This document shows, one piece after another, positions 41,943 to 42,398 of a stretch of DNA of 64,000 nt. The stretch lies in sequence record NC_054912.1. One strand, written 5' to 3'. A model generated the notes under the pieces. It was not told where the DNA came from, made no database searches, and worked only from the letters and a program-made list of their open reading frames with translations. A program made the translations under genes and the position numbers. This DNA is from Escherichia phage vB_EcoM_F1. Each line of letters starts with the position of its first letter. Position 1 is the first letter of the stretch.

Positions 41943-42398
41943 TTATTTTAAATCATCTGCCCAATCGAGTTTAAGAGGCTCTTTGTATTCACGGTCAAGT
42001 ACAACCGGAATTTGTACATCACCGCTAAATGATAAGGGCCCAACATTATAAGACAATGTTATATGCGGTGTGTAATCATCAAAATCATGTGTAGCACCTA
42101 GTGCCCGCGCATACATGTGTCGACAGCGCAGATATTCAGAATCTAGCACAAGTACAAGAGTCGATCCATCTTGCGTTTTCCATACTTCTAAATGCCCAGA
42201 AGAAGCTACTTCAAAACTTCCACTCGATGGAACATATGGAACATTTACTCTCGAATAACATATGGTCGAATGAATTTTTTCTCTAGGAACTGGATTAGGA
42301 ACACGTAAAGAGCGCTGGAGTTCTTCCAGCGCGTCAAGTGTTAATTCTGAAAACTTAGCTGCTACATAAAGACCCGTTGAAAAGTCTTTAAATTCCAT
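41943..42398 (-). CDS. 57B: 2H phosphoesterase 57B (Acb1, anti-CBASS cyclic-oligonucleotide nuclease)
   Basis: 151 aa with two HxT/S motifs ([14 protein letters not shown]); position next to 57A. Confidence 0.8.

Follow-up and report, generated by a model that had tools for sequence, protein, structure and literature searches.

The window, a 64,000-nucleotide stretch of Escherichia phage vB_EcoM_F1 (NC_054912.1), carries on its minus strand an open reading frame that runs from an ATG at 42398 to a stop at 41943 and specifies 151 amino acids, full length and with neither internal stop nor frameshift. The ORF listing, identity to T4 and matches in Pfam and the PDB mark this CDS (41943..42398, minus, stop included) as gene 57B, or acb1. 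An earlier note had picked out in its product the peptides HSTICYSR and HITLSY as the two H-x-T/S motifs of a 2H phosphoesterase. Both are present, one in the N-terminal and one in the C-terminal half, and each has the strict H-x-T form: H43-S44-T45 at 42264..42272 (minus; T4 H44/T46) and H112-I113-T114 at 42057..42065 (minus; T4 H113/T115). The 2H superfamily is marked by two H-x-T/S motifs separated by tens of residues, and the protein has this arrangement. Taken by itself the pair is weak evidence, the weight coming from homology: at least two H-x-T occur in 2.3% of residue shuffles of the protein and at least two H-x-T/S in 17%, and because of the latter figure the pair is not used as standalone evidence. 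The C-terminal lid, residues 144–151 (T4 145–152; 41946..41969, minus), which includes W146 (T4 W147), is identical in sequence to that of T4.

Upstream of acb1 are two genes of the same strand. Gene 1 (dNMP kinase; 42640..43365, minus; Pfam PF21448, 353.8 bits) is the first cistron of the series 1-57A-57B and gene 57A (tail-fibre chaperone; 42398..42640, minus; Pfam PF17594 GP57, 168.5 bits) the second. The stop of gene 1 overlaps the start of 57A, and the TAA stop of 57A the ATG of acb1, in both cases as TAATG, which suggests translational coupling at the two junctions. The second junction differs from its T4 counterpart. T4 57A ends with TGA, its overlap being ATGA where that of the window is TAATG, and the T4 57A/57B junction reads ATGATG, so that T4 Acb1 is annotated with 152 amino acids starting MME. 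In the window the first of these two codons is ATA, and the protein therefore starts at the second Met of its T4 counterpart, the shared ATG, one Met later.

Upstream of gene 1, sequence reading picks out TGCTTCA, 11 nt and TATAAT at 43391..43414 (minus), a candidate middle promoter which, from its apparent resemblance to the T4 middle-promoter consensus, is presumably MotA-dependent. Such a site would fit both the time at which Acb1 activity sets in, about 15 minutes after the start of T4 infection (PMC9117128), and the middle/late class to which the 57B transcript belongs in T4 (bioRxiv 10.64898/2026.03.30.715471). The T4 late-promoter motif TATAAATA occurs 14 times in the window, where chance gives 11.5 ± 3.6, so there is no excess; one copy lies at 42996-43003 (minus), within gene 1 and ahead of 57A, and no claim is drawn from it.

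Just downstream of the acb1 stop is a 13-bp stem-loop (41891..41920, minus; fold energy −20.5 kcal/mol, z = −4.8), which none of 200 shuffles matched in folding. Overlapping it, the promoter scan gives a promoter-like site, TTTACA-17-TACTAT (41901-41929, minus), for the next gene, ipI (41580..41870, minus; PF11634, ‘Nuclease inhibitor from bacteriophage T4’, the GmrSD inhibitor family). In a generic scan for sigma-70 promoters and terminators around the acb1 locus, sites were no more numerous than in shuffles; this one is kept on account of a near-copy of its cassette that follows ipI. The two intergenic cassettes flanking ipI, 41871-41945 and 41505-41582 (minus), are about 80% alike, and in both a TTTACA-17-TACTAT-type site overlaps a stem-loop, the stems differing in sequence while each remains self-complementary. 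Promoter-early stem-loop (PeSL) cassettes have been proposed as mediators of module shuffling in T4-type phages (PMC2839356, PMC4122927). The ipI-flanking cassettes have this form, and ipI would then be a mobile module beside acb1. In T4 also, Acb1 is encoded after 57A and before ipI, with the same downstream cassette of stem-loop and promoter.

Identity and distribution of acb1

Over its whole length the protein is identical (151/151) to residues 2–152 of T4 gp57B/Acb1 (NP_049750.1). An 852-nt alignment of the locus to T4 has a mean column identity of 99%, and the 12 nucleotide differences inside the acb1 CDS are all synonymous. The Pfam model for Anti-CBASS protein Acb1 (PF23474) is matched at 202.7 bits, the cut-off being 27, with coverage of profile positions 1–144 of 144. 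All nine published functional residues of T4 Acb1 are present, numbered one lower: besides the two catalytic H-x-T pairs these are the stacking residues Y11, W73, F106 and W146 and the adenine-reading E140 (T4 Y12, W74, F107, W147 and E141).

A close solved homologue, Acb1 of Erwinia phage FBB1 (PDB 7T26/7T27), aligns at 141 of 144 residues with 68% identity (E = 4e-62). It shares the H-x-T/H-x-T tetrad, the lid and the length class of the window protein, from which it differs in having HTT in place of HST, F in place of W73 (T4 W74) and a one-residue insertion after the Q-x-G turn. On sequence, this degree of similarity to 7T26 places the window protein in the compact 2H phosphoesterase fold. 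The fold assignment rests on FBB1 Acb1 because a single-sequence AlphaFold2 model (pLDDT 37.9, pTM 0.30) was too poor for a fold search. When the window protein was aligned with FBB1 Acb1 and seven homologues from other genera, nine sequences in all with identity ranging from 86% down to 37%, Y11, H43, T45, H112 and T114 were invariant. Two marginal matches were set aside as spurious, the Pam3 portal protein (PDB match, E = 0.062) and the weakest tblastn match, from Pseudomonas phage psageK9, whose 31% identity over 84 residues falls inside a 600-amino acid protein after the terminase gene; the latter was kept out of the alignment.

The earlier note had named the gene 57B/Acb1 and proposed alignment to T4 Acb1, with retention of the catalytic histidines, as its check. 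The name holds, the protein sequence being that of T4 57B in the same position after 57A, and both histidines are kept in the window protein and are invariant across the eight diverse homologues. The gene is almost certainly an intact acb1, the last cistron of 1-57A-57B, whose product is the anti-CBASS 2H phosphodiesterase of T4-like phages and acts here as it does in T4.

By tblastn, 1484 of the 50,697 phage records contain a homologue; identity reaches 99% or more in 497 of them and is 80–90% in 388. The order 3-1-57A-acb1 is kept in the window, in T4 and in seven other Straboviridae genera or lineages (Mosigvirus, Tegunavirus, Bragavirus, Krischvirus, an Acinetobacter T4-like phage, Pseudotevenvirus and Slopekvirus). 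With a 3.1-kb query around acb1, identity is 100% to Escherichia phage vB_EcoM_FN (MZ170041.1; Straboviridae, Tequatrovirus), which comes from poultry sewage in Portugal, and about 500 other T4-like records match the same stretch at 95–99%. The window corresponds to bases 32001-96000 of the vB_EcoM_FN record, window coordinate x being x + 32000 there.

The homologues of Citrobacter phage CfP1 and Klebsiella phage KP27 (Pseudotevenvirus and Slopekvirus) are longer: of their 207 amino acids (1459-2082) about 55 form a C-terminal extension. The H-x-T tetrad is kept and the Trp at the lid position of T4 W147 is missing (LDLDK versus KLDW), so that their lid and substrate range may differ.

Chemistry of Acb1 and the RNA ligase label

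T4 57B was recognised as Acb1 through activity-guided fractionation (Hobbs et al. 2022; PMC9117128). The view that this is a known system rather than a new one is thus upheld, T4 57B being the founding Acb1. The finding is already known and holds no new biology; its discovery value is small, since it re-identifies the founding anti-defence enzyme of its kind, already characterised structurally and genetically.

In T4 Acb1 the 2H fold carries the tetrad H44/T46/H113/T115, the stacking residues Y12/W74/F107/W147, E141, which reads adenine, and a lid made of residues 145–152; in the FBB1 structure the ligand is covered by the closing lid (PMC9117128). Its ligands are cyclic di- and trinucleotides with at least one adenosine. 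It cuts 3′3′-cGAMP, cUA, cAAA and cAAG 3′ of adenosine without need of metal, and does not cleave cGG, cA4 or 3′2′-cGAMP (PMC9117128). The ligand is strained so that the adenosine 2′-OH attacks the 3′-5′ bond, and the cyclic phosphate intermediate then gives a linear 3′-phosphate product, GpAp; the H44A/H113A protein is inactive (PMC9117128). Acb1 keeps the effectors Cap5, Cap4 and CapV from being activated, and loss of acb1 leaves T4 growth normal in the absence of CBASS but reduces it more than 300-fold in its presence (PMC9117128). In a transposon screen 57B was conditionally essential on a CBASS host (bioRxiv 10.1101/2025.11.20.689424).

From the sequence-identical T4 protein we infer that the protein of this phage cleaves cyclic oligonucleotides and rescues infection from CBASS; the chemistry, substrate range and protection in vivo set out here are carried over from the T4 literature. 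Translated as the last cistron of a gene 1-57A-57B transcript in middle-to-late infection, the 17-kDa enzyme would capture adenosine-containing cyclic di- and trinucleotides (3′3′-cGAMP, cUA, cAAA, cAAG). These would be held in a U-shaped pocket, where Y11, W73, F106 and W146 stack and E140 reads the adenine N6, with the C-terminal lid closed over the substrate. Metal-independent acid-base catalysis by H43/T45 and H112/T114 would then let the adenosine 2′-OH attack the 3′-5′ phosphodiester, giving a 2′,3′-cyclic phosphate that is hydrolysed to a linear 3′-phosphate such as GpAp. Deprived of their signal, CBASS effectors would stay off and the infected cell would not be killed before the phage cycle ends.

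Databases have given the same protein several names. It is a ‘hypothetical protein’ in the vB_EcoM_FN record (FN1NEW_0147) and an ‘RNA ligase’ for T4 and many orthologues in RefSeq and for PHROG 755, which the window protein matches at 228.5 bits; across further records it is ‘RNA 2′,3′-cyclic phosphodiesterase’, ‘cyclic phosphodiesterase’ or ‘anti-CBASS protein Acb1’. The 2H superfamily to which it belongs includes LigT. The LigT / 2′-5′ RNA ligase family (PF13563) has two H-x-T/S motifs, a pseudo-symmetric fold and metal-independent chemistry by way of a 2′,3′-cyclic phosphate. It acts on an RNA end, whereas the substrate of Acb1 is a cyclic oligonucleotide. One could accordingly read the gene as a LigT-like 2′-5′ RNA ligase, or an RNA 2′,3′-cyclic phosphodiesterase, that works on RNA ends, perhaps as part of tRNA repair; the presence of the phage tRNA cluster some 1.4 kb away would suit such a role. 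There is also a match to PF13563 2_5_RNA_ligase2 (E = 0.11), but it amounts to 13 bits, below the cut-off of 27, and covers residues 80–122 only, as against the 202.7 bits for PF23474; no NCBIfam model matches the protein. The identical T4 protein is a cyclic-oligonucleotide phosphodiesterase with a CBASS-specific phenotype, its loss leaving T4 normal where CBASS is absent, and the Acb1 literature cited here reports no ligase activity. A role at RNA ends is thus extremely improbable as the function of the gene. The ‘RNA ligase’ label is outdated: it predates the biochemistry and is not evidence of another function. For annotation, the correct name is anti-CBASS phosphodiesterase Acb1.

A separate proposition is that Acb1, while acting against CBASS, has a second physiological substrate in T-even phages, either RNA or tRNA fragments with a 2′,3′-cyclic phosphate or some other adenosine-containing messenger. 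We regard it as very unlikely, the data speaking neither for it nor against it. If true, it could explain the near-invariance of Acb1 (about 500 records at 99% identity or above) and the constancy of its position in the gene 1-57A operon by the tRNA cluster, even in phages grown on hosts without CBASS.

Anti-defence neighbours and guard systems

The earlier note took acb1 to mark the window as anti-defence territory. In part this stands: ipI adjoins acb1, and both gene 2 (DNA end protector; 44052..44876, from its position in the source record and T4) and a homologue of Acb2/vs.4 (31015..31281, minus; PF24729, 71.2 bits), about 11 kb from acb1, are in the window. However, acb1 itself sits in a housekeeping and morphogenesis operon, and there is no dedicated island. 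The Vs.4 of the window is close to that of T4, with a few substitutions, for example within EALDNCEDCEF, so the phage encodes both known anti-CBASS proteins, Acb1 and Acb2.

Acb2 (T4 Vs.4) has the same aim as Acb1, removal of the CBASS signal, and also shares its middle/late expression (bioRxiv 10.64898/2026.03.30.715471). It is an unrelated protein, though, and it sequesters the signal rather than cleaving it (PMC10312549). The anti-Pycsar protein Apyc1 is, like Acb1, a phage nuclease directed against immune cyclic nucleotides; it differs in having a metallo-beta-lactamase fold, Zn dependence, cyclic mononucleotides as substrates and no homology to Acb1 (PMC9117128). A nearer relative is phage 2H PDE-9 (PDB 9Q2G, deposited as ‘Anti-CBASS protein Acb1’), with which the window protein shares the 2H core and catalytic histidines at weak sequence similarity (E = 0.0044). 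The lid of 2H PDE-9 is N-terminal, that of Acb1 C-terminal. 2H PDE-9 also degrades 3′3′-cGAMP, but it cleaves 2′3′-c-di-AMP poorly and so, unlike T4 Acb1, does not trigger the guard system Panoptes (bioRxiv 10.1101/2025.08.21.671373).

It is by consuming 2′3′-c-di-AMP that T4 Acb1 triggers Panoptes. When residues 145–152 are removed Panoptes activation is lost, from which the authors infer that the lid is needed for catalysis (bioRxiv 10.1101/2025.08.21.671373). Type II Panoptes, with a cA3 signal, restricts relatives that have an intact acb1, and these escape by acb1 mutation (PMC13577387).

Such loss of acb1 is both natural and selected. The acb1 of Bas43 has a nonsense mutation and Bas35 escapers have mutations in the gene (PMC13577387). 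In Escherichia phage BYEP02 (OR757454.1, 89372-89901) an acb1 match of 100% identity lies in two pieces spread over 530 nt, compared with 453, and overlies two ‘hypothetical protein’ CDS; the gene is possibly interrupted here, a point of interest in view of acb1 loss driven by Panoptes. The acb1 of the present phage might by the same token be silent or inactivated, as in some Panoptes-escaping relatives. Against this, its ORF is full length with each residue that of the active T4 enzyme, and the upstream operon, stop/start overlap and promoter-like site are conserved with T4, so that a non-functional gene has only a vanishing probability here.

With acb1 taken as functional, the presence of Acb2 beside an intact Acb1 predicts resistance to CBASS signalling through cGAMP, cUA or cA3-type molecules, and intact Acb1 predicts sensitivity to Panoptes-type guards, which sense the loss of decoy cyclic nucleotides. 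By analogy with T4 and its relatives, one would expect the phage to withstand CBASS and to be open to restriction by Panoptes. For an isolate from poultry sewage, this prediction could bear on host-range prediction in phage therapy.

Other differences from T4

Relative to T4 the window is a mosaic of blocks with 83–98% identity interspersed with several replacements. Where T4 has denV, ipII and ipIII (T4 64942-66384, a segment with no blastn match in the window), there is a single ORF of 157 amino acids at 32871-33356 (minus; DUF7412, 319 bits). Its N-terminus, MKTYQEFITEA, resembles the start of the ipI product in the window, MKTFKEF. Another ORF of 157 amino acids (37964..38437, minus), with no Pfam match, belongs to a stretch that does not align with T4. 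Its product, too, has a start resembling the leader of an internal protein, MKSYTQFLNEA, and just upstream, at 38478-38485, there is a copy of TATAAATA.

T4 mobB (T4 37817-38679) is absent from the window. Roughly at the position of T4 mobD there is a predicted membrane ORF (23604..24065) together with two tandem paralogues (24068..25150, minus) of a y05I-like putative transcription factor (PF24449 and PF24448). Genes 13 and 14 are separated by about 800 bp without counterpart in T4 (61949..62760, plus strand), which encode an ORF of 153 amino acids with an HNH motif (PF13395, 25.3 bits) and an overlapping Cys/His-rich ORF of 117 amino acids; this is probably a homing endonuclease of the free-standing type, and possibly a split one.

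As in T4, eight tRNA genes are clustered (39194-40549, minus), and the cluster is interrupted, at the position of T4 segB, by an ORF of 221 amino acids (39274..39939). The tRNA with a CAT anticodon is called ‘Met’ by ARAGORN, its T4 equivalent being annotated as tRNA-Ile.
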